This document shows positions 3,304 through 20,492 of a stretch of 64,000 nucleotides of DNA, in pieces. The stretch covers positions 15,099 to 79,098 of IMG/VR virus record IMGVR_UViG_3300031260_000038; one strand, given 5' to 3'. The notes beneath the pieces are model-generated. The model did no database searches and was not told the origin of the DNA. It worked only from the letters and a program-made list of their open reading frames with translations. This DNA comes from a virus. Taxonomy: Duplodnaviria > Caudoviricetes. How positions within the stretch are numbered: the first letter of the stretch is position 1; each line of letters begins with the position of its first letter. Made by a program: the position numbers and the translations under genes.

Positions 3304-3723
3304 GTGAAAATAAATTATACTATTGATGAAAAAAACAGAAAAATTATAGGTGAATACACATCTAAAAATAATGTTAGATACCGAGCTACAGCAAAGTGTT
3401 TCGCTACAGATGAATATAGCGAAGATAATGGTAAAGATATTGTTAAAGCTAAAATAAAAATTAAACAACTTATTAGGTGTCATAATGAAGAATATAAGAG
3501 AAATGAAAATTTAAGGGAACAATTAGAACGCTCTGAAAAGCGACTGATACGAATAGAAAGCCAATGGATAGAACATGTGGCAGAATTAATTAAGAAGGGA
3601 GTTTGTTGTGATATGAAGGATATTTGCCCTGAATGTGGTAGTACAGAATTTATTTATAATGATGATATAGCACTATATGTATGTGCTGTATGCGGTAAAG
3701 AGCTAAGTATATATATGCAGTAA
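3304..3723 (+). CDS. Hypothetical protein with C-terminal zinc ribbon
   Basis: GTG start after GGGG RBS; CPECGS...CAVCG. Confidence 0.55.
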   Translation: MKINYTIDEKNRKIIGEYTSKNNVRYRATAKCFATDEYSEDNGKDIVKAKIKIKQLIRCHNEEYKRNENLREQLERSEKRLIRIESQWIEHVAELIKKGVCCDMKDICPECGSTEFIYNDDIALYVCAVCGKELSIYMQ

Positions 3724-8134: not shown

Positions 8135-8250
8135 TATATTTAATTTTGTTTGTGGCAGGAATTATTTTTGAAAAATTATTTTCACCTTTAATTGATATGA
8201 TTACAGAATATTGCGGAAAGCCACTTCTTTAGGTGTGGGATGGATAGCAC

Positions 8251-8279
8251 TTGACAACATGCACATTATGTGATATAAT
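8251..8279 (+). promoter_or_regulatory. SigA-type promoter of tnpB-2
   Basis: TTGACA-17-TATAAT with extended -10 TG. Confidence 0.8.
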
Positions 8280-8285
8280 GTAAGT

Positions 8286-9767
8286 ATGAACACGAAATTA
8301 TTTTATACAAACAGTAAAAAAGAGGTAAACACTTTGTCAAATTTTATTCTAACTTTAAAGTTAAATGCTGAGAAATATCAACAAGACATACTGGATAAAC
8401 GACTAGATATAAGCAGAACGATTTATAATAGTTGTTTGGGCGAATTATTTAAAAGATATAACACCATGAGACAATCTAAGGAATATCAAAAAACACTTAA
8501 AATGACAGCAGGAAAAGAAAGAAATAAAAGGTTTAATGAATTAAATAAAAAATATGGATTGACAGAGTATTCACTTCACGAATTTGTTAAGCCTGTACAA
8601 CATCATTTTAAAAACAACATAGACAGTCACACGGCACAAAAAATCGCAACAAGATGTTTTAACGCTTTTCAGAAACTAATGTTTTATCAATCTAAAAAAG
8701 TATGTTTTAAGCGGCATGGAGAAATGAACAGTGTTGAAGGAAAATCCAATAAGTCTGGTATAAGGTTTAAAGACAATAAACTAATATGGAACGGATTAAA
8801 AATAGACGTAATAATTAAAAATAACGATAAATACACACAAATGGCACTAGGAAATAACATTAAATATTGCAGAATCGTTAGAAAACTAATTCGTGGAAAA
8901 CATAAATATTATGTTCAGCTAATATTAGATGGAGTGCCACCAATGAAAATTAACAGACACACTGGCGAAATTAAAAACGGCATAGGCAATGGAAAAGTTG
9001 GTATTGATATTGGAACAAAAACCGTGGCATATGCTAGTAAATACGAAGTCAAGCTGTTAGAACTAGCACCAGAGATAAACAACATAGAAAAAGAAAAACG
9101 CATACTTCAAAGAAAGTTAGATAGACAGCGTAGAGCCAATAATCCTAATAATTACAACGAAAATGGTACTGTTAGGGTTGGCGGTAAATCAGCAAGGTTA
9201 AAATGGACAAAATCTAAAAAATATATTAAAACACAAAATAAATTAAGAGAAATCCAACGCAAGCAAGCCGATATAAGAAAACAATCACACAACAAGTTAG
9301 CCAACCATATTGTTTCATTGGGTAATGAAGTATACGTTGAAACTATGGATTATAAAGAGCTTCAATCTAGGGGTAGAAAAACAAATATTAATAAGAAAAG
9401 GTTTGGCAAATCATTAGCTAACAAAGCACCAAGTATGTTTTTAACTATATTGGACAATAAGTTGAAATGGCACAATAAACGATTGTTAAAAATAAACACC
9501 ATAAAGATTAAAGCAAGTCAATATAACCATGTGAAAGATGAATATATTAAAAAAGACTTGTCTGATAGGTGGAATGATTTTGGTAGTTTCAAAATTCAAA
9601 GAGATTTATATAGTAGTTTTATAATAATGTGCACTAAAGATAACCTAAAAGAAACAGATAAAAAGCTGTGTATCAAAGAATTTGAAAATTTTAAAATGCT
9701 ACACGATATCGAGATTAAAAGAATAAAAAACAGTAAAAGTAAAACAATATCTAGTATGGGGATATAA
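8286..9767 (+). CDS. tnpB: Long TnpB variant lacking the zinc finger
   Basis: RuvC D (GIDIG), E (VETM), D (QRDLYS); no CxxC pairs. Confidence 0.8.
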   Translation: MNTKLFYTNSKKEVNTLSNFILTLKLNAEKYQQDILDKRLDISRTIYNSCLGELFKRYNTMRQSKEYQKTLKMTAGKERNKRFNELNKKYGLTEYSLHEFVKPVQHHFKNNIDSHTAQKIATRCFNAFQKLMFYQSKKVCFKRHGEMNSVEGKSNKSGIRFKDNKLIWNGLKIDVIIKNNDKYTQMALGNNIKYCRIVRKLIRGKHKYYVQLILDGVPPMKINRHTGEIKNGIGNGKVGIDIGTKTVAYASKYEVKLLELAPEINNIEKEKRILQRKLDRQRRANNPNNYNENGTVRVGGKSARLKWTKSKKYIKTQNKLREIQRKQADIRKQSHNKLANHIVSLGNEVYVETMDYKELQSRGRKTNINKKRFGKSLANKAPSMFLTILDNKLKWHNKRLLKINTIKIKASQYNHVKDEYIKKDLSDRWNDFGSFKIQRDLYSSFIIMCTKDNLKETDKKLCIKEFENFKMLHDIEIKRIKNSKSKTISSMGI

Positions 9768-10820: not shown

Positions 10821-10862
10821 AAAAAAATTGGGAGAACAGTTTAATTACTGTTCTCCCTTTTG
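10821..10862. terminator. Bidirectional rho-independent terminator
   Basis: 11-bp stem gggagaacagt/actgttctccc with A-tract before and T-tract after, where the two transcription units converge. Confidence 0.85.
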
Positions 10863-10866
10863 TTGT

Positions 10867-11013
10867 TTATATTGTAGGTATTATTTCTTCAAGATAGCCA
10901 CGAATGGTTATAGCCACGGCTACGTCTCCACCTACAGCTTCTGCATAGGCATCAAATGTAGTTCCTTCTGGAAACACAAGTGGCAGTTCTAATGGAATAT
11001 CTACTAATTGGTC
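10867..11013 (-). pseudogene. Orphan 48-codon C-terminal gene fragment
   Basis: DQLVDIPLELPLVFPEGTTFDAYAEAVGGDVAVAITIRGYLEEIIPTI-stop; preceded in frame by TAA, no start codon at its 5' end. Confidence 0.55.
10996..11010 (-). repeat. att-like direct repeat (partner 15434-15448)
   Basis: caattagtagatatt vs caattggcggatatt, 12/15, same frame (QLVDI / QLADI). Confidence 0.45.
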
Positions 11014-11030
11014 TTATAAAATCACCCTTC

Positions 11031-12011
11031 TCACGATATGTGATATTTAAAATGAGCCTCTTTTGCTCTGTGAGTTGAACTTGATATATATACTCTAGTT
11101 GTATCTGCTGACCTATGTCCTAGGGCATCTTGTATATCTGAAAGCTCCATGCCAGCTTCGTGTGATAGCGTTGCAAATGTGTGTCTTAATACGTGCGGTG
11201 TTAGTTTTTTAGAAATATTTGTTTTAATACTTATGTTTTCCAAGATTTTTTGTATAGCCCTGTTAGACAAATTGCCATGTGGTTTTTTAAGAGAAACAAA
11301 AAGATGCTCTGAGTCTACATCACGCTGACTGAGGTATGTTTGCAAATAATACAAACATTTTTGTGACAAAAAGGTTATTCTTTCTTTGTCGCCTTTTCCT
11401 ATAACGGTTAGCGTTCCTTGGTCTAGGTTCAGACTAGACAATTTAGCGCCCGCTATTTCAGACAGTCTAGCACCAGTTGAATACATTACTTCTATTAGCG
11501 CCCTGTCTCTTATGTTTTCACAAGCATTTCTAATTTTTTCTAAATCTATTATATTTAATGCTTTTGGAAGTCTGACAGGCTCTTTAATTCTTGAAAATCC
11601 AACCCATATGTTTTCTTTAACGTAGCCTTTGGTCAGCGCCCAGCCGTAGAATGTTCTAAGCACAGTGACGGTGTTGTTCTTAGAGGAATTTTTAATAGAT
11701 AGCTGTCTAATGTATTCCATTGCGTCATTGGTTGATATTTCAGAAATATTGCTAAAAGAACTAAGAAATTTATTGATTAATATTTTTCTATCTTTTACTG
11801 TTAGTGTTGAATAGCCCGCATCTAACATATGTTGACAATACCCCTGAATGATGTCTTCTTTATTAGCTTCCACTATTTCTGAAAACACTTCTTTAACACT
11901 ATATTTTTGCAATAATCTTTGAGCCACCATTCTTAGCAAGTTGTGGTCTGCCGCCGTGTCTAACATTCTAACTGATTCTACCAATTCGTTTATTAGTTTT
12001 TCTTTGGACAT
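11031..12011 (-). CDS. Tyrosine recombinase 1 (XerC/D-like)
   Basis: STGARLSE, GKGDKER, HVLRH, GHRSADTTRVY: catalytic R-K-H-R-H-Y intact. Confidence 0.92.
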   Translation of the reverse strand: MSKEKLINELVESVRMLDTAADHNLLRMVAQRLLQKYSVKEVFSEIVEANKEDIIQGYCQHMLDAGYSTLTVKDRKILINKFLSSFSNISEISTNDAMEYIRQLSIKNSSKNNTVTVLRTFYGWALTKGYVKENIWVGFSRIKEPVRLPKALNIIDLEKIRNACENIRDRALIEVMYSTGARLSEIAGAKLSSLNLDQGTLTVIGKGDKERITFLSQKCLYYLQTYLSQRDVDSEHLFVSLKKPHGNLSNRAIQKILENISIKTNISKKLTPHVLRHTFATLSHEAGMELSDIQDALGHRSADTTRVYISSSTHRAKEAHFKYHIS

Positions 12012-12035
12012 AATAGCACCATCCTTTCAGATGCT

Positions 12036-12064
12036 ATTATATCACAAAGATTTTGTTTTGTCAA
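12036..12064 (-). promoter_or_regulatory. SigA-type promoter of recombinase 1
   Basis: TTGACA-17-TATAAT with extended -10; overlaps a 9-bp inverted repeat. Confidence 0.85.
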
Positions 12065-12085
12065 GTGCTATTTCGCAATATGTGG

Positions 12086-12205
12086 CTATTGTGTAATAAT
12101 TTCAACTTTTTCGCTTTCGGTTATTCTTCCGATTTCCACGAGGTTATTTAGATAAGCTTCGTCTATTTTTCCCATTTGGAACTGTAATTTCAAAAACCTT
12201 ATCAT
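12086..12205 (-). CDS. XkdX-like small protein (39 aa, not in ORF track)
   Basis: MIRFLKLQFQMGKIDEAYLNNLVEIGRITESEKVEIITQ; TAATG coupling to the upstream gene. Confidence 0.6.
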   Translation of the reverse strand: MIRFLKLQFQMGKIDEAYLNNLVEIGRITESEKVEIITQ

Positions 12206-12474
12206 TAAAATCCACCCCCTAAAACATCCACCATCAGCATTTCCAAGGCTTCAAGGCGTTCTTCTGCCGTCGGTTCTTTTTGCCAGTATTTATCAAAATT
12301 TTCTTCTAATTCTGACAACGTAGCGGTTGTCTTAAAAGCCAGTTCATCGTATTCATAAAATGTCTGACCTTCTTCATTCTTGTATTCACGTTCGTTTTTC
12401 CGTAAATACACATCAGCATACTTTCCGATTGGGAAATAAGATATTTTAGGTTGTTTGGTAGTGTATTCTGCCAT
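12205..12474 (-). CDS. XkdW-like tail-fibre-associated protein
   Basis: ATG after GGAGG; C-terminal EPTAEERLEALE motif; directly upstream of the XkdX-like gene. Confidence 0.55.
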   Translation of the reverse strand: MAEYTTKQPKISYFPIGKYADVYLRKNEREYKNEEGQTFYEYDELAFKTTATLSELEENFDKYWQKEPTAEERLEALEMLMVDVLGGGF

Positions 12475-13618
12475 TGTTTTCCTCCTTTTGGTATTGACTG
12501 ATATAATTTTTACAAATATTAACAGCTTCAACTATTTTAAGTTTTCTTCTAATAAACCACGAGTTTGTGTGTTTATACCAACTATAAGCAGATATAATTT
12601 TCCGTGCGATATTTATATTAATTTTTCTTTTCCAGAATTTAACAAAAACACGTCTTGTTTTTAAAAATATTTTAGTTCTAATCGTTGTAGAGTTCTTTCT
12701 AAAAACAAATCCCATCATGTCTATCGGCTCATTGTTTGAAAGCTTGTTCGTTTTCCAGAAATCCTTAATATCTAACAGCAATTCTTCCTTAAGGAATTTC
12801 TTTAACATTAGAAAGGCTCTTTTTACAAATTTCTTGTTTTTACCAGTCAAGATAAAGTCGTCCATATAGAATAAAACGTGTGTTATCAACCTCTTGCGAA
12901 CAACCCCTCTTTTAGTTCTTCTGACAGTGAATAATTTTTCGCTTGCAAAATGATAGGCATAAGACAAATAATAATTACACAAGTATTGAGATAAATATGA
13001 ACCAATTGAAAGACCGCCGTTAAACATTGATAATAATAATTTGAACAACCATATAAGCGTGTTGTTTTTAATATCTCTTTCCAAAAAATATATTAATTTG
13101 TCTTGTGGTATTGATGGGAAACACTTTACGACATCTCCTTTTATAAAATATTTTACTTCATTTCTATCAATCCACCTGCGTATAAATCTTTTGCCATAAC
13201 ATTGTCCTTTATTGGGTAAAGATGCGCATTGAAATACTCCGATTTTTGCCATTAACATCTCTTTAGCACCCTCTATTGCGATATAATCACATATTTGGTG
13301 AAGTGGCGACTGAACCCCTATAGTTCTTTCTTTTTTGCACATATAATCGTACTTGGTGAAATATTGTATAGGTCTTAATTTCAGCGTCTTGTTTCTGATT
13401 TTGCCTGATAAATAATTAGCAATATTTAACACAATGCAATGTATTCTCGTGCGGTCGTTGTTCACAAAACCTGTTATCTCTAAATAACTATAATTTGAAA
13501 ATTTGCAAAACAATCTTCGCACATCTTTTCTGTTCCATTTTCTTTTTAAATATTTATATATGCAACTAACAATAAAATCCATGTTGCATATATCTATGTT
13601 TTTACAGTATCTTTTCAT
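12446..13618 (-). CDS. DGR reverse transcriptase RT1
   Basis: FIKGDVVKCFPSI, GLSIGSYLSQ, FYMDD; no group II intron maturase domain; adjacent TR/VR pair. Confidence 0.93.
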   Translation of the reverse strand: MKRYCKNIDICNMDFIVSCIYKYLKRKWNRKDVRRLFCKFSNYSYLEITGFVNNDRTRIHCIVLNIANYLSGKIRNKTLKLRPIQYFTKYDYMCKKERTIGVQSPLHQICDYIAIEGAKEMLMAKIGVFQCASLPNKGQCYGKRFIRRWIDRNEVKYFIKGDVVKCFPSIPQDKLIYFLERDIKNNTLIWLFKLLLSMFNGGLSIGSYLSQYLCNYYLSYAYHFASEKLFTVRRTKRGVVRKRLITHVLFYMDDFILTGKNKKFVKRAFLMLKKFLKEELLLDIKDFWKTNKLSNNEPIDMMGFVFRKNSTTIRTKIFLKTRRVFVKFWKRKININIARKIISAYSWYKHTNSWFIRRKLKIVEAVNICKNYISQYQKEENNGRIHYQTT

Positions 13619-13749
13619 TATGACCTTTCTAATAATGTCTCAATGGATTTCGCTAAACTACTAACCACTGCTGTAACGATTAATTTTACTTAGTTAAGTG
13701 AGCCGTGCCCGCTTAAAGCGGGGAGACTTGGCACATTGTTTTTTTATTA

Positions 13750-13860
13750 GATTGCCGGGGCAAGATATTCCAGTTCGAGTTCGTCAACGAGTTGTTGCCA
13801 TTCAAGTAACGTAATCCACACTGAGCGTCATTGTTCAGATTACCGAAAGACTGCCATACC
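13750..13860 (-). repeat. DGR1 template repeat TR1
   Basis: 111 bp; 24 differences from VR1, all at TR adenines (17 A>G, 6 A>T, 1 A>C). Confidence 0.96.
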
Positions 13861-13884
13861 TTGCTGTGCCAAGAATCCTCTATA

Positions 13885-13914
13885 AGGGGTTGTCACCCCT
13901 CAATGCTTCGCATT
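13885..13914 (-). promoter_or_regulatory. Candidate DGR1 target-recognition hairpins
   Basis: AGGGGT-GACA-ACCCCT (GRNA loop) and AATGC-GAA-GCATT just downstream of the target stop. Confidence 0.65.
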
Positions 13915-13915
13915 T

Positions 13916-15655
13916 TCACCCCAAACTACGCCTGCGGCTTCGCCCAGTTGCTGAAAGCCGGGGCAAGACATACCAGCCCGAGCCCGCCAACGAGTCGCTG
14001 CCAACCAAGCAACGCAATCCACACCGAGCGCCAACGCTCAGAAGACCGAAAGACCGCCACACCCTTGTACCAGTAACCGGAGAATTTGTATAGATACCAT
14101 CGCCAAATCCAGTAGAAGAACCCGCTAATGACTCAACAGGCACAATTACAGATGGATTATTTTCGTCGATTGCTATTTTGCTAATATACTGCCAAGCGTT
14201 ATTTGTTTGTGTCAATTGATAACCAACTAAATCATAATTAGAAGTTATTGAAGTTGCGTAATTATGACAATCGTAACAAGCGTAAACTTCAATTTTGTAC
14301 GTTCCGGTATTGTCGTTGTTGATTATCAAGTTTTGAATGACTTCATAACCACCAACCATCACTTCTATGCCGTTGATGATAAAGGGTTCTTTGCCTGATA
14401 AATTGTTATAAGGCGAACCATCTTGACCGAGCACGTCATCACAGCCGCCGCTGTTCCAAGGCATTGTTGATATTTTAGTTGACAAGGTGGTGTCGAAAAC
14501 AGCAGAATCCACATAGACAGCGCTGTTGCCATCGCCTAAATCTTCAATAGATGTTATTTTAACTCTATTTGCCAAGTCGTGAACGCTTGCGTTTGCTCTA
14601 TCTGTCGTTGTAGCGTTGCCAACCGAAACAGTCGAACCAACAAGCAAGTAAGCGCCTTCTGCATTTGACACAACAACACGATTAACCCCGGTTTCCGCAA
14701 CCCTATTGGAATACTGGGCATAGTAAGCCTGACAACCTTTCATCACATCGTCTGATATTGTTGTTGCGTATTTAAGCCACATCATCAACTGCACGTAAAA
14801 ATCATCGTGAGAAGTTTTGCCGCTATACTGAGCGCCTTTGGCGGCAAACGCTGTAATTTGTCCATTGTGGCTCATATTCACATATTCAGGATAAACACCG
14901 CTGATGGACGCAAGATTGTTACTTTCGTGTACGTTTCTTCCTGCGACATACTTAGCGAACAGCAAATAAGGTCTGATTGTTCCGTCGGGCTTTTCTGCCG
15001 GTTGTAGAATTTTGTAACCCTCGTATGGAAAATCAGTATACGAAACTTCCCAATAAGTGTCCGTAAATGTTACTTTAAAATACCCCGCCATCGCCATGAT
15101 GTAGACATCGCCGTTCGTGCCGTCACGCCTGAAATTAGAATCGCCTTTTATTGCTGTAACGTGGTAATCGTCGTTTGCATCTACATGAGCGTTGACTTCA
15201 ATCGACCGAAACAGACCGATGTTTTCGTAGTCGTTTCTGCCTTTGATGGTGTTTGTTGACGGTTCACAGACAAGACCCATGCTATCATCAAGTTTTGTTC
15301 CGAGTGGTGACTGTGACACAGAGAACAGATTGAACCTTACAGTGTAGATTTTCCCTGTGCGTTGTGCATTCCAGAATCCACCTAATCCGATATACTCAGT
15401 ACCATTGAAATAAACATCGTTCACGTTTGACGCAATATCCGCCAATTGTGTATCTAGTTCATCTATTGCATCTTGTGTATTAGTAGCCGTAAGTCCACTT
15501 GTAGTATTATTATATTCTAAATCTATTGCTGACGCTTCTGCATAGCTACCTGTGCCATCACCTTTTAGAACGCCGTTTACGTCTCTCATTGTTTGCAACA
15601 TCTCGCCATATTTAGTAGATGCTATCGGCTGACCATTATACATTAAAACAGCCAT
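13916..15655 (-). CDS. DGR1 target: tail fibre / receptor-binding protein with C-terminal CLec/Mtd-like variable domain
   Basis: VR1 at the C-terminus; short N-terminal stalk motif TATNTQDAIDEL. Confidence 0.85.
   Translation of the reverse strand: MAVLMYNGQPIASTKYGEMLQTMRDVNGVLKGDGTGSYAEASAIDLEYNNTTSGLTATNTQDAIDELDTQLADIASNVNDVYFNGTEYIGLGGFWNAQRTGKIYTVRFNLFSVSQSPLGTKLDDSMGLVCEPSTNTIKGRNDYENIGLFRSIEVNAHVDANDDYHVTAIKGDSNFRRDGTNGDVYIMAMAGYFKVTFTDTYWEVSYTDFPYEGYKILQPAEKPDGTIRPYLLFAKYVAGRNVHESNNLASISGVYPEYVNMSHNGQITAFAAKGAQYSGKTSHDDFYVQLMMWLKYATTISDDVMKGCQAYYAQYSNRVAETGVNRVVVSNAEGAYLLVGSTVSVGNATTTDRANASVHDLANRVKITSIEDLGDGNSAVYVDSAVFDTTLSTKISTMPWNSGGCDDVLGQDGSPYNNLSGKEPFIINGIEVMVGGYEVIQNLIINNDNTGTYKIEVYACYDCHNYATSITSNYDLVGYQLTQTNNAWQYISKIAIDENNPSVIVPVESLAGSSTGFGDGIYTNSPVTGTRVWRSFGLLSVGARCGLRCLVGSDSLAGSGWYVLPRLSATGRSRRRSLG
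13953..14063 (-). repeat. DGR1 variable repeat VR1
   Basis: Encodes VWRSFGLLSVGARCGLRCLVGSDSLAGSGWYVLPRLS vs TR1 VWQSFGNLNNDAQCGLRYLNGNNSLTNSNWNILPRQS. Confidence 0.96.
15434..15448 (-). repeat. att-like direct repeat inside target 1 (codons Q70-I74)
   Basis: 12/15 identity to 10996-11010; at the end of the stalk. Confidence 0.45.
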
Positions 15656-15729: not shown

Positions 15730-16590
15730 ATGATTGAAAATTTTTGTACTTACCTTTATTCTGTAAAAAACAGGTCACATAGAACGATAACTGAATATCG
15801 TTATGACCTATTGCGTTTTGAAAAATTTATTGGAAAAGACCTAAAAGATGTAGATAGCGGCGACATTATTTCTTATCTAAAAAAGATGTCAGACGAAAAG
15901 AAGTCTAGTGCCTGTAGAGCTAGAAAACTAAGCTCTATTAAATCGTTCTACCGCTATCTACAAATGTTTGGTCATGTTACGGTCAGCCCCGCCGTAAACA
16001 TTGGTACGCCCAAAATTGAAAAGAGATTGCCTAAATATTTATCCCTAGTCGAAGCTGTTAGGCTTGTTGATGTAGCCAAGCAAAACAAAGTTGAGTTTTA
16101 CAGACTAAGAGATACCTGTATGATACAAATGTTTCTTAACTGTGGTTTGCGTCTATCTGAACTTGTTGAACTGCAACTGACAAGAATTAGCGGTGATAAA
16201 ATAGAAGTTATTGGAAAAGGCAATAAACAAAGATTTATTTATATGAACAATGCTTGTCAAAAAGCTCTTTCAGAGTGGCTTAATTACCGACAAGAATATT
16301 CCTGTGACTATGTTTTTAGCACGAAAAGAGATAACAAAATATCCAAAACAGCTGTTCAGTCAGTTATAAAGAATTATTTCAGAAAAGCTGGTCTTGACAC
16401 AACTAAATACCATGTTCACAGCCTACGACATACGTCTGCCACACTAATGTATCAGTATGGCAAAACAGACGTGCGTGTGCTACAACAATTTTTAGGACAC
16501 TCTACGATAGAATCAACCATGATATATACTCACGTTAATGACAACCAATTAAGGTCTGCTGTTATTAACAATCCACTGGCTAACCTATAG
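15730..16590 (+). CDS. Tyrosine recombinase 2 (XerC-like), antisense to the surrounding operon
   Basis: NCGLRLSE, GKGNKQR, HSLRH, GHSTIESTMIY: catalytic residues intact. Confidence 0.92.
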   Translation: MIENFCTYLYSVKNRSHRTITEYRYDLLRFEKFIGKDLKDVDSGDIISYLKKMSDEKKSSACRARKLSSIKSFYRYLQMFGHVTVSPAVNIGTPKIEKRLPKYLSLVEAVRLVDVAKQNKVEFYRLRDTCMIQMFLNCGLRLSELVELQLTRISGDKIEVIGKGNKQRFIYMNNACQKALSEWLNYRQEYSCDYVFSTKRDNKISKTAVQSVIKNYFRKAGLDTTKYHVHSLRHTSATLMYQYGKTDVRVLQQFLGHSTIESTMIYTHVNDNQLRSAVINNPLANL

Positions 16591-16594
16591 GCGA

Positions 16595-16610
16595 AATCTT
16601 AATTTGGTTC
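16595..16610 (+). repeat. 16-bp inverted repeat, left copy
   Basis: aatcttaatttggttc, 4 bp after the recombinase-2 stop; exact reverse complement of 19661-19676. Confidence 0.8.
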
Positions 16611-18953: not shown

Positions 18954-20492
18954 TTAAGAAATACAGAAAGCGGGACGCACGCCATAAGAGAGAGAAGCGC
19001 CGTAGTTGCCGGCAAGACCGTCGTTGGTGACATAGGCAAAGGTCGCCGATGATGAAACATCTCTCAACCAATAGGATTGCCTCGTATTCACGGATTGTGG
19101 GTTTGATGCAAATAGTGGGAATTGCGATTTATCCACATATACATTATTCGCCAAGCTAGTCCCTTGCGTTGCGTTGCCATAATGCTTAGTGCCATATACA
19201 TTAGCTTCAGTCATCAGTTCTACCGTTGAGTCATACCACGATCCACCACTTGTATACCCACTGGTTACCGCATTATGTAAATAGTTTCTATGACTTACCA
19301 CATGACCGCTAAAGGCGTTATTTATGGTGGTTTTTGCACTATTTAACCCAGATACATACATTTTGCTGCCAACATAAGCACCTGTTGTAATGTTAGTGTC
19401 ATTCATCACATGATTATACAGTGCTGTGTCTGGCACTATTACAGCGTGATTAGCGGTAAGCGCTGTATCGCCTGTATTGTGGTAATAATTGAAACAAGCT
19501 ATTCTGTAATTAATTCCACCGATAGTCCAATAGTCGCCAACATATAGGTCGTCAAATGTGCCGCTTGAAATGGCATTGTATTGCTCTGTTGTGACAGCCG
19601 AACCTAAATATTTACCCCTGAATATAGAGTTGTGAAACCCTGCGCCACTTGAAATTGGTAGAACCAAATTAAGATTAGTGTCTAATTTATCAATTGAACT
19701 GGTAACAGTTTCACCATCTGTTACATAATTATTTTCTGTATAAAGCCTGTCACCAACATTGTCATTTGTGTCTTTTAATTCCATATCTAACTTGTCTATG
19801 CTTGCAGTTAAAGCTTCACCATCTGTTACATAATTTTCTTCAGTATAAAGCTGAGAACCTTTATCTTCACCTATTTCTTGTAAAGCATCTTCAACAGTGT
19901 TGCCGCTATAATATCCGCCGCCATCTGTTATACTTATTGTGTTAGCGTTGTTTATTAAAAGGTCTCCTTCTACATCTGTTATAATATATACTTGGTCTGA
20001 TTCAATTTTACCCTGTGCATCAAGAGCATCATATTCAGCCTGAGTTAAATATATGGCTGTAATTTTATACCAACTGCTATCTGGTGGCCCTGCTTCACCG
20101 CCACGCATTACATCAAATTTAATTTCACCGCTACTTATTCTTTCGTCTGCATCAGTAATTGTTATTTTTATTGTTACTTTACCTATAAAAGCAAACACAG
20201 CAGGATTTATTTGTAAAACTATTTCTCCATCAACTATATTTACATCATTACCAAAACTTTGGGTATATACAGGTTCACATTGATTCTCAATATAATAATG
20301 AACATCAATTGTTTCTGTTGTAAGTGTTAATTTAGCGCCATTTTTTTGTACTTCAATATAAAAAATATTGCCATATAAATCACCACGACTAAAAAAAGGA
20401 ACAACATATTTATATGTTTGATTATTATATGGAGCTATAATATGTTTACCTGTATATAAATCAAGCCAAACTTTGTATTCTTTTTTAGCCAT
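18954..20492 (-). CDS. DGR2 target: baseplate-anchored tail fibre (BppU-like N-terminus, stalk repeats, CLec-type C-terminus)
   Basis: FSRGD N-terminal motif, LTQAEYDAL motif, 35-aa repeat, C-terminal YWLRD...GVRPAF. Confidence 0.87.
   Translation of the reverse strand: MAKKEYKVWLDLYTGKHIIAPYNNQTYKYVVPFFSRGDLYGNIFYIEVQKNGAKLTLTTETIDVHYYIENQCEPVYTQSFGNDVNIVDGEIVLQINPAVFAFIGKVTIKITITDADERISSGEIKFDVMRGGEAGPPDSSWYKITAIYLTQAEYDALDAQGKIESDQVYIITDVEGDLLINNANTISITDGGGYYSGNTVEDALQEIGEDKGSQLYTEENYVTDGEALTASIDKLDMELKDTNDNVGDRLYTENNYVTDGETVTSSIDKLDTNLNLVLPISSGAGFHNSIFRGKYLGSAVTTEQYNAISSGTFDDLYVGDYWTIGGINYRIACFNYYHNTGDTALTANHAVIVPDTALYNHVMNDTNITTGAYVGSKMYVSGLNSAKTTINNAFSGHVVSHRNYLHNAVTSGYTSGGSWYDSTVELMTEANVYGTKHYGNATQGTSLANNVYVDKSQFPLFASNPQSVNTRQSYWLRDVSSSATFAYVTNDGLAGNYGASLSYGVRPAFCIS
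18963..19053 (-). repeat. DGR2 variable repeat VR2
   Basis: Colinear with TR2 at a constant offset of 711 bp. Confidence 0.94.
19661..19676 (+). repeat. 16-bp inverted repeat, right copy (codons N273-L278 of target 2)
   Basis: gaaccaaattaagatt; at the stalk / C-terminal domain boundary. Confidence 0.8.
19710..19835 (-). repeat. Stalk repeat in target 2
   Basis: 21-bp exact direct repeat (19710-19730, 19815-19835), period 105 bp; LYTExNYVTDGExxTxSIDKLD twice. Confidence 0.85.

Follow-up and report, generated by a model that had tools for sequence, protein, structure and literature searches.

Mosaicism among phage tail fibres is usually ascribed to selection acting on the products of infrequent recombination, either illegitimate or homologous. 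Integron cassettes are promoterless gene units bounded by tyrosine recombinase sites and situated beside the gene for the enzyme, while engineered recombinase-mediated cassette exchange (RMCE) uses heterospecific lox or FRT sites, in which the same arms and different spacers permit exchange and not excision. In Acinetobacter plasmids, dif modules consist of genes between two tyrosine recombinase sites with different spacers; replaced modules keep near-identical left and right spacers, and single-module exchange has been modelled as cointegrate formation and resolution (PMC13141974). In the Rin shufflons of Bifidobacterium and Eggerthella prophages (PMC6109161, PMC8778435), with which Min, Gin and Cin are grouped as related switches, a constant N-terminus is joined at an in-frame crossover site to a variable receptor-binding C-terminus, with an armless tyrosine recombinase nearby. 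Surveys of diversity-generating retroelements (DGRs) report frequent horizontal transfer and name no recombinase or site as the mover (PMC5758913; bioRxiv 2020.04.01.020958; 0 mentions of ‘recombinase’). Here we analyse a DGR-bearing tail gene, target 1, from a 79,098 bp phage genome (IMG/VR record IMGVR_UViG_3300031260_000038); positions 15,099 to 79,098 of the record make up the 64,000 nt window to which the coordinates in this genome refer. The tip of target 1 and the genes that follow it lie between two 20 bp sites, A and B, just ahead of a gene for a tyrosine recombinase (recombinase 1). It is probable that this 3.36 kb tip module is exchanged between genomes by two site-specific crossovers, at A and at B, through an enzyme that we infer.

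Both sites are quasi-palindromes of the form CRCAAT-N8-ATTGYG, in direct orientation, 3,357 bp apart and with unlike 8 bp spacers. Site A, on the left (15431..15450, minus strand), reads CACAAT-TGGCGGAT-ATTGCG and encodes, in frame, codons 69-75 (TQLADIA) of target 1. This 579 aa product of the open reading frame (ORF) list (13916..15655, minus strand) has a constant N-terminal stalk (codons 1-68) and a C-terminal domain that can be swapped and has the DGR variable repeat at its end; its profile matches, to phrog_17147 over 74-575 and to the tail protein phrog_5302 over 442-567, indicate a probable virion receptor-binding or tail protein. Site B, on the right (12074..12093, minus strand), reads CACAAT-AGCCACAT-ATTGCG. 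Its left arm is formed by the final codons and stop (TQ-stop) of gene X, and it ends 10 bp before the -35 element of the recombinase 1 promoter, a perfect sigma-70-type promoter with an extended -10 (12036..12064, minus strand; 12/12 by sequence match). The pattern has exactly two matches in the 79 kb genome, A and B, where 0.017 would be expected, and the 18/22 direct repeat that they form is unique in the window (P about 0.0006 for two random 60 nt windows). A site matrix built from 24 distal sites of other phages, circular for the left arm and only partly so for the right, placed B at rank 1 and A at rank 2 of 158,140 genome positions; in the matrix sites the arms are conserved and the spacer is free. 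The assignment of A also draws on junctions mapped between loci L087 and L001 and between L208 and the window, and that of B on its identity to A and on a crossover in L090. Because palindromes of the 11-6-11 type are common in this DNA (45 at ≥9/11), we gave the symmetry of B no weight. At 3402-3421 on the plus strand, a palindrome within a coding region gives the next-best matrix match in the genome, with a lower score of 16.9.

By analogy, the locus appears to work most like the swapping of one dif module and to be laid out like an expressed Rin gene, while lacking the defining features of both, as well as those of integrons and integrative elements. It resembles dif modules in the unlike spacers of its two sites and in the left and right spacers kept by replaced modules. 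However, pdif sites, which are those of host XerC/XerD, have a 6 bp spacer, are plasmid-borne and are inverted around one module, whereas A and B are a different quasi-palindrome with an 8 bp variable centre, lie in direct orientation, one of them in a reading frame, and belong to tail genes of phages, next to a phage-encoded recombinase. Their arms are only loosely like pdif arms (PMC13141974), and bacterial chromosomes almost entirely lack the A pattern: in its strict form it matched once in 802 bacterial genomes, at a locus with no right site for its module. The Tyrovirus recombinase (PMC9703825) has just one site, attP-like and of 11-6-11 form, rather than such a pair, and engineered RMCE is a laboratory construct, whereas here a system of this kind would be natural.

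The likeness to Rin extends from the constant stalk, variable tip and neighbouring armless recombinase to the placing of one site inside the expressed gene and one just past its 3′ end. A Rin-type inversion switch stripped of its alternative tips, in which recombinase 1 flips the segment between A and B as invertase sites, would account for a layout that matches that of Rin (PMC6109161) and for the near-palindromic form of the sites; a second DGR nearby, DGR2, moreover has exact inverted repeats and, in L086, an inverted alternative tip. Yet Rin has identical asymmetric 11 bp sites and a stored array of tips reached by inversion, whereas here there is one tip with no inverted partner, the spacers are unlike and the alternatives lie in other genomes. 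A and B score higher as direct than as inverted sites (27.1 against 19.8, and 22.9 against 17.2), the window spacers are unmatched when inverted, and no relative has an inverted allele or a silent tip on the opposite strand, all of which makes the inversion switch very improbable.

Comparison of relatives places the junctions within the sites. L087 carries a 501 aa GDSL-domain gene on a stalk that matches L001 with 1 difference in about 220 nt; the two diverge right after the TQLN codons, and L087 rejoins the common sequence at spacer B, just ahead of the recombinase promoter. Its spacers have 7/8 bases in common with L001 at A and 7/8 with L090 at B. To the left of spacer B, L090 is identical to L001 at 127/130 positions, and to the right it is identical to L087 at 130/130, which narrows the exchange to within 8 bp. 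L208 and the window differ in the stalk up to site A and are identical beyond it. From these junctions at A and B, the swapped unit comprises the variable domain, the template repeat TR1, the reverse transcriptase RT1, and genes W and X, 3,357 bp in all. The double-junction swap also appears in two unrelated lineages, one of them pairing DGR with non-DGR tips: L035 and L036 are 99.8% identical outside both sites and have the same recombinase afterwards, with a 3.2 kb DGR module in one case and a 0.76 kb non-DGR tip in the other between the sites, and L230 and L233 likewise differ from site to site. In the L035/L036 DGR module, 23/24 differences are at adenines. Among 28 loci, some of them related, 11 of 27 alignment ends near the sites fell inside a site, with about 0.4 expected. 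Where modules have been replaced (L087/L001/L090, L035/L036 and L026/L234), left spacers match left and right match right. The site-bounded segments of L233, L234, L230 and L238 sometimes hold extra non-tail genes, such as an acyltransferase-like gene in L230, and the module can, on this evidence, carry morons.

Our data are consistent with a model in which two phage genomes occupy one cell and A recombines with A, then B with B, via a cointegrate. The 3,357 bp between the sites would be the mobile unit, a replaceable fibre-tip module swapped in frame onto the constant stalk, and the DGR would ride as cargo and then fine-tune the tip. The like-with-like crossovers would be catalysed by a tyrosine recombinase, most likely of the recombinase 1 family encoded just past B; that this family acts in trans in phages without their own copy has less support. 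Because tyrosine recombinases generally require matching overlap regions, the difference between the A and B spacers would impede excision, and the module would be exchanged rather than lost. Alternatively, A could recombine with B in an integron-like manner, one strand pair being exchanged and unlike spacers tolerated, to excise a promoterless 3,357 bp circle, which carries one site and inserts where the stalk ends in another phage. We give this only a slim chance. Among assembled sequences, no related locus contains an emptied A/B allele, a tandem array or a circle junction, and the sharing of left spacers with left and right with right is the signature of a double crossover; no search for attC-like hairpins was made beyond the 20 bp site. 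The module also departs from integrons in being single, with no array and no attC-sized site, and in fusing a domain in frame instead of adding whole genes. As an IntI-type integrase, recombinase 1 scored 82 bits against TIGR02249, for which the cut-off is 265.

The site pair recurs in other phages. A scan of IMG/VR with the A pattern returned 20 loci, and in 19 of these it encodes xQLA(D/E)I(A/V), in frame, within called ORFs resembling tail genes. A same-strand half-site follows the module, within 1.6 kb past the gene, at nine of the 13 evaluable loci (0.55 expected; one on the other strand), and a full palindrome with at most one mismatch at four of the 13, in three cases 1-13 bp past the stop codon. 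When the B pattern was used for the scan instead, it matched at seven loci: in five the match closes a tail module at its distal end, three have an in-frame left site and one is then followed by a recombinase 1 homologue. Starting from the recombinase, half-sites were found within 1.2 kb upstream of 14 of 57 recombinase-1-family genes (4.2 expected; two on the other strand). Phage TPELB_ph1 (PP197244.1), retrieved solely as a recombinase match, has an in-frame left site and a right site 3 bp past the tail-gene stop, followed by the recombinase, with both sites where predicted. The centre of the right site varies among relatives, being 6 bp ahead of the recombinase 1 homologue in L026/L047 and 8 bp in the related L044/L234. 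B-like 11-6-11 sites showed no enrichment before distant recombinases, the signal appearing with a half-site near the gene, and L243/L244, which have QLNE left sites, had no right site in about 1 kb of sequence beyond. These scans show tail-tip modules flanked by the site pair across many Bacillota phages that are unrelated to one another, often just ahead of a recombinase-1-family gene. The literature searched, from which subscription journals were mostly absent, contained no description of a CRCAAT-N8-ATTGYG site pair, and the paired-site system is widespread and apparently undescribed. It may also move non-tail genes: in L065 (9167-10470), two full sites with near-identical spacers, each just past a stop codon, surround three small genes in a replication region near a broken recombinase 1 homologue.

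Recombinase 1 (326 aa; 11031..12011, minus strand) is a Xer-like tyrosine recombinase, recognized by PF00589, by its R-K-HxxR-H-Y catalytic motifs and by its position in a tree. There the site-linked recombinases form one broad phage family, apart from generic XerC/D, with which the second recombinase of the window branches; recombinase 1 itself is a long branch, and its exact placement is unsure. An earlier, sequence-only reading of this DNA had put the recombinase inside the mobile unit, a claim that did not hold. L087/L088 retain recombinase 1, at 95% nucleotide identity, and the short orphan frame beyond it, behind a GDSL gene without TR, RT, W or X; in L001, RT1 is 96% identical and the recombinase only 69%; and an RT lies near just one of 80 recombinase 1 homologues. 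The gene thus lies outside the swapped module, stays when the DGR is absent and is inherited separately from RT1. Its family is our candidate, and the most likely one, for the enzyme acting at A and B. In L211, recombinase 1 is cut to 224 aa by an IS605/TnpB element. In the window, its promoter region (12036-12071) is 78% identical over 36 nt to that (8244-8279) before a TnpB-like gene at 8286.

Several observations count against exchange by a dedicated enzyme at A and B. A PF00589 gene is absent from four of five paired-site records, one of them complete, implying that the enzyme there acts in trans or is another protein. Over whole recombinase loci the full palindrome was not enriched (15 seen, 12-17 expected). 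The sequence of A is constrained by the protein that it encodes, the motif was taken from A and B themselves, and the half-site rule and 1.6 kb window were fixed after the data had been seen, with several loci kin to one another. Deletions in L085 and L211 disregard the sites, L237/L238 have a right site and no clear left one, and in L002/L003 the DGR1 domain stands behind unrelated N-termini without a site, indicating that the site pair would not be the sole route of tip movement. Such points bear on the possibility that A and B are short conserved sequences at module boundaries, a protein motif on the left and a regulator operator or similar on the right, between which single-strand annealing proteins or illegitimate recombination, with selection for intact domains, generate mosaics without any site-specific enzyme. 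That A encodes a recurrent stalk motif, that B touches the recombinase promoter and that most paired-site records tested have no tyrosine recombinase all suit this explanation, and junctions at domain borders are expected under selection. We nevertheless judge it unlikely. It does not account for the occurrence of the same palindrome, its arms conserved and its spacer free, in both a coding motif and a non-coding gene end, for exchanges inside 7-8 common bases between unrelated flanks, or for the enrichment of right sites before one recombinase family, frequently far from promoters and directly at stop codons.

The DGR that the module contains is real and ordinary, of the avd-less kind. The variable repeat VR1 (13957..14063) is 79% identical to TR1 (13754..13860), and all 22 of their differences fall at template adenines; as in DGRs of the Bordetella BPP-1 type, VR, TR and RT are joined by adenine-specific change. 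RT1 (390 aa, 12446..13618; RVT_1, phrog_1423) starts 132 nt after TR1. With gaps of 53 and 132 nt around TR1, the module has no avd gene and no room for one, whereas DGR2 does have Avd; avd-less DGR lineages have been described (PMC5758913). Beyond RT1 lie W (89 aa, 12205..12474), a small gene placed like XkdW-like fibre accessory genes and with no family match in Pfam, PHROG or NCBIfam, and X (39 aa, 12086..12205), XkdX-like by a TIGR01669 match under the cut-off (E 0.005); all of these features are on the minus strand. What distinguishes DGR1 from surveyed DGRs is that mapped exchange sites flank both the element and the domain that it targets; DGR1 travels together with the tip. Two relatives have shortened modules. 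In L085 (1-320), a target-1-like stalk is fused straight to a W-like C-terminus, followed by X and an intact 255 aa gene, giving a tip-less allele with its junction off site A. In L211 (2815-5195), most of TR1 and RT1 is deleted, which leaves a frozen DGR target, and the orphan frame is gone.

The sequence-only reading had proposed a 4.4 kb integrative cassette of DGR and recombinase, inserted at QLADI, with the orphan frame as the displaced C-terminus of target 1. Its coordinates were borne out. The recombinase 1 stop is at 11033-11031, and 20 bp past it a 15-mer (11010-10996, minus strand) lies in a start-less 48-codon frame (11013-10870, stop 10869-10867) with no upstream start; QLADI, at codons 70-74 of target 1 (15448), has the same strand and frame and is 12/15 identical; and recombination between the two would remove 4,438 bp and leave a 116 aa fusion. 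As a site pair, however, the repeat is at chance level: the window has 14 positions that fit the orphan 15-mer at 12/15, and when random stretches of 40-71 nt were compared with the initial 450 nt of target 1, 12/15 was reached in 17-29% of trials (7-11% if the frame was given). Nor did the orphan prove to be the original C-terminus. Among longer proteins we found P0006, which is 94% identical across the 48 aa, and P0007, another copy of it; these 255 aa homologues belong to phrog_8198, align over their full length with other 240-270 aa phage proteins, and show no similarity to target 1 in their first 207 residues. In a model of P0006 (pLDDT, predicted local distance difference test, 66), the orphan forms the last three strands of a beta-sandwich and the 15-mer is internal to it; Foldseek gave only weak beta-sandwich matches to this model (template modelling score about 0.2).

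Similarity to the intact 255 aa gene runs about 10 bp to the left of the 15-mer. The 20 bp past the recombinase stop may represent either a former ribosome-binding site for the 255 aa gene or coding sequence that has decayed. The intact gene stands in L084/L085 before the same terminator, without recombinase 1, and the orphan is frameshifted in L087/L090. The orphan (10867..11013, minus strand; codons 208-255 of an all-beta phage protein) is a 5′-deleted pseudogene, debris of an unrelated gene truncated beside the recombinase. Orphan searches of IMG/VR, by representative-protein profile and of Atlas yielded nothing useful, a stalk scan of metagenomes gave only a generic repeat motif, and we found no relative with the intact gene after recombinase 1. 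The idea that the 15-mer might be a third, cryptic site was rejected, since it has a background matrix score and rank 20,724 of 158,140. With the orphan derived from an unrelated protein and the recombinase not part of the cargo, the integrative cassette is refuted, on the terms that the earlier reading had itself set, and we accord it next to no probability in spite of the in-frame repeat; no related locus among the assemblies contains the stalk-orphan fusion that would represent an empty allele, or a circle junction. The proposed swap of the C-terminus was real: the left junction, at codons 69-75, was placed correctly and the DGR does move with the tip, but the right junction is at 12074-12093, not 11010, and the pattern fits replacement between genomes, not integration. 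The repeat and orphan are coincidental, although the earlier reading had located a true junction of the swappable DGR-bearing tip module.

On the minus strand, the tape measure, tail and lysin genes precede a BppU-type tail gene that has DGR2, and a divergent tyrosine recombinase; next come target 1 and its DGR1, the small genes W and X, and recombinase 1, and after these the orphan frame and an intrinsic terminator that is bidirectional. The terminator (10830..10857, both strands), found also after the intact 255 aa gene in L084/L085, shuts the late region off from a convergent thy1-like gene. Gene content and relatives suggest a Bacillota host. The divergent recombinase (286 aa; 15730..16590, plus strand) is part of a separate system, together with the inverted repeats that flank DGR2: these 16 bp repeats (16595-16610 and 19661-19676) are unrelated to A and B. 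In L086 (8348-9061), two non-DGR tips in opposite orientation lie between the DGR2 inverted repeats, forming an inversion switch like that of Rin. A small, unrelated siphophage (L201-L207, L210) has a nearly identical copy of the DGR2 module (domain, Avd, TR, RT2, W2 and XkdX) and of both inverted repeats, behind a different N-terminus and followed by holin and lysin genes with no recombinase. In L084 (1-130), the second recombinase is directly divergent from the intact 255 aa gene, with no target 1 between them.

A broader proposition is that a natural form of RMCE operates across Bacillota phages, in which a tyrosine recombinase family swaps tail-tip modules, DGRs included, at paired sites, and of which the (S/T/A)QLA(D/E)I motif and the XkdX-like TQ-stop are the imprint; we hold this to be an even prospect. 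A defined 20 bp site, a candidate enzyme family and crossovers mapped to the base make questions about fibre mosaicism and DGR transfer testable. If the proposition is true, a recurrent protein junction motif would be explained, as would the function of the unexplained ‘extra integrase’ between the tail and lysis genes of many Bacillota phages, and the family could supply a new recombinase with heterospecific sites. Phages would have a site-specific route for shuffling receptor-binding domains between one another and for bringing DGRs onto new stalks, and a single locus would combine two layers of receptor diversification, module exchange and then DGR mutagenesis.

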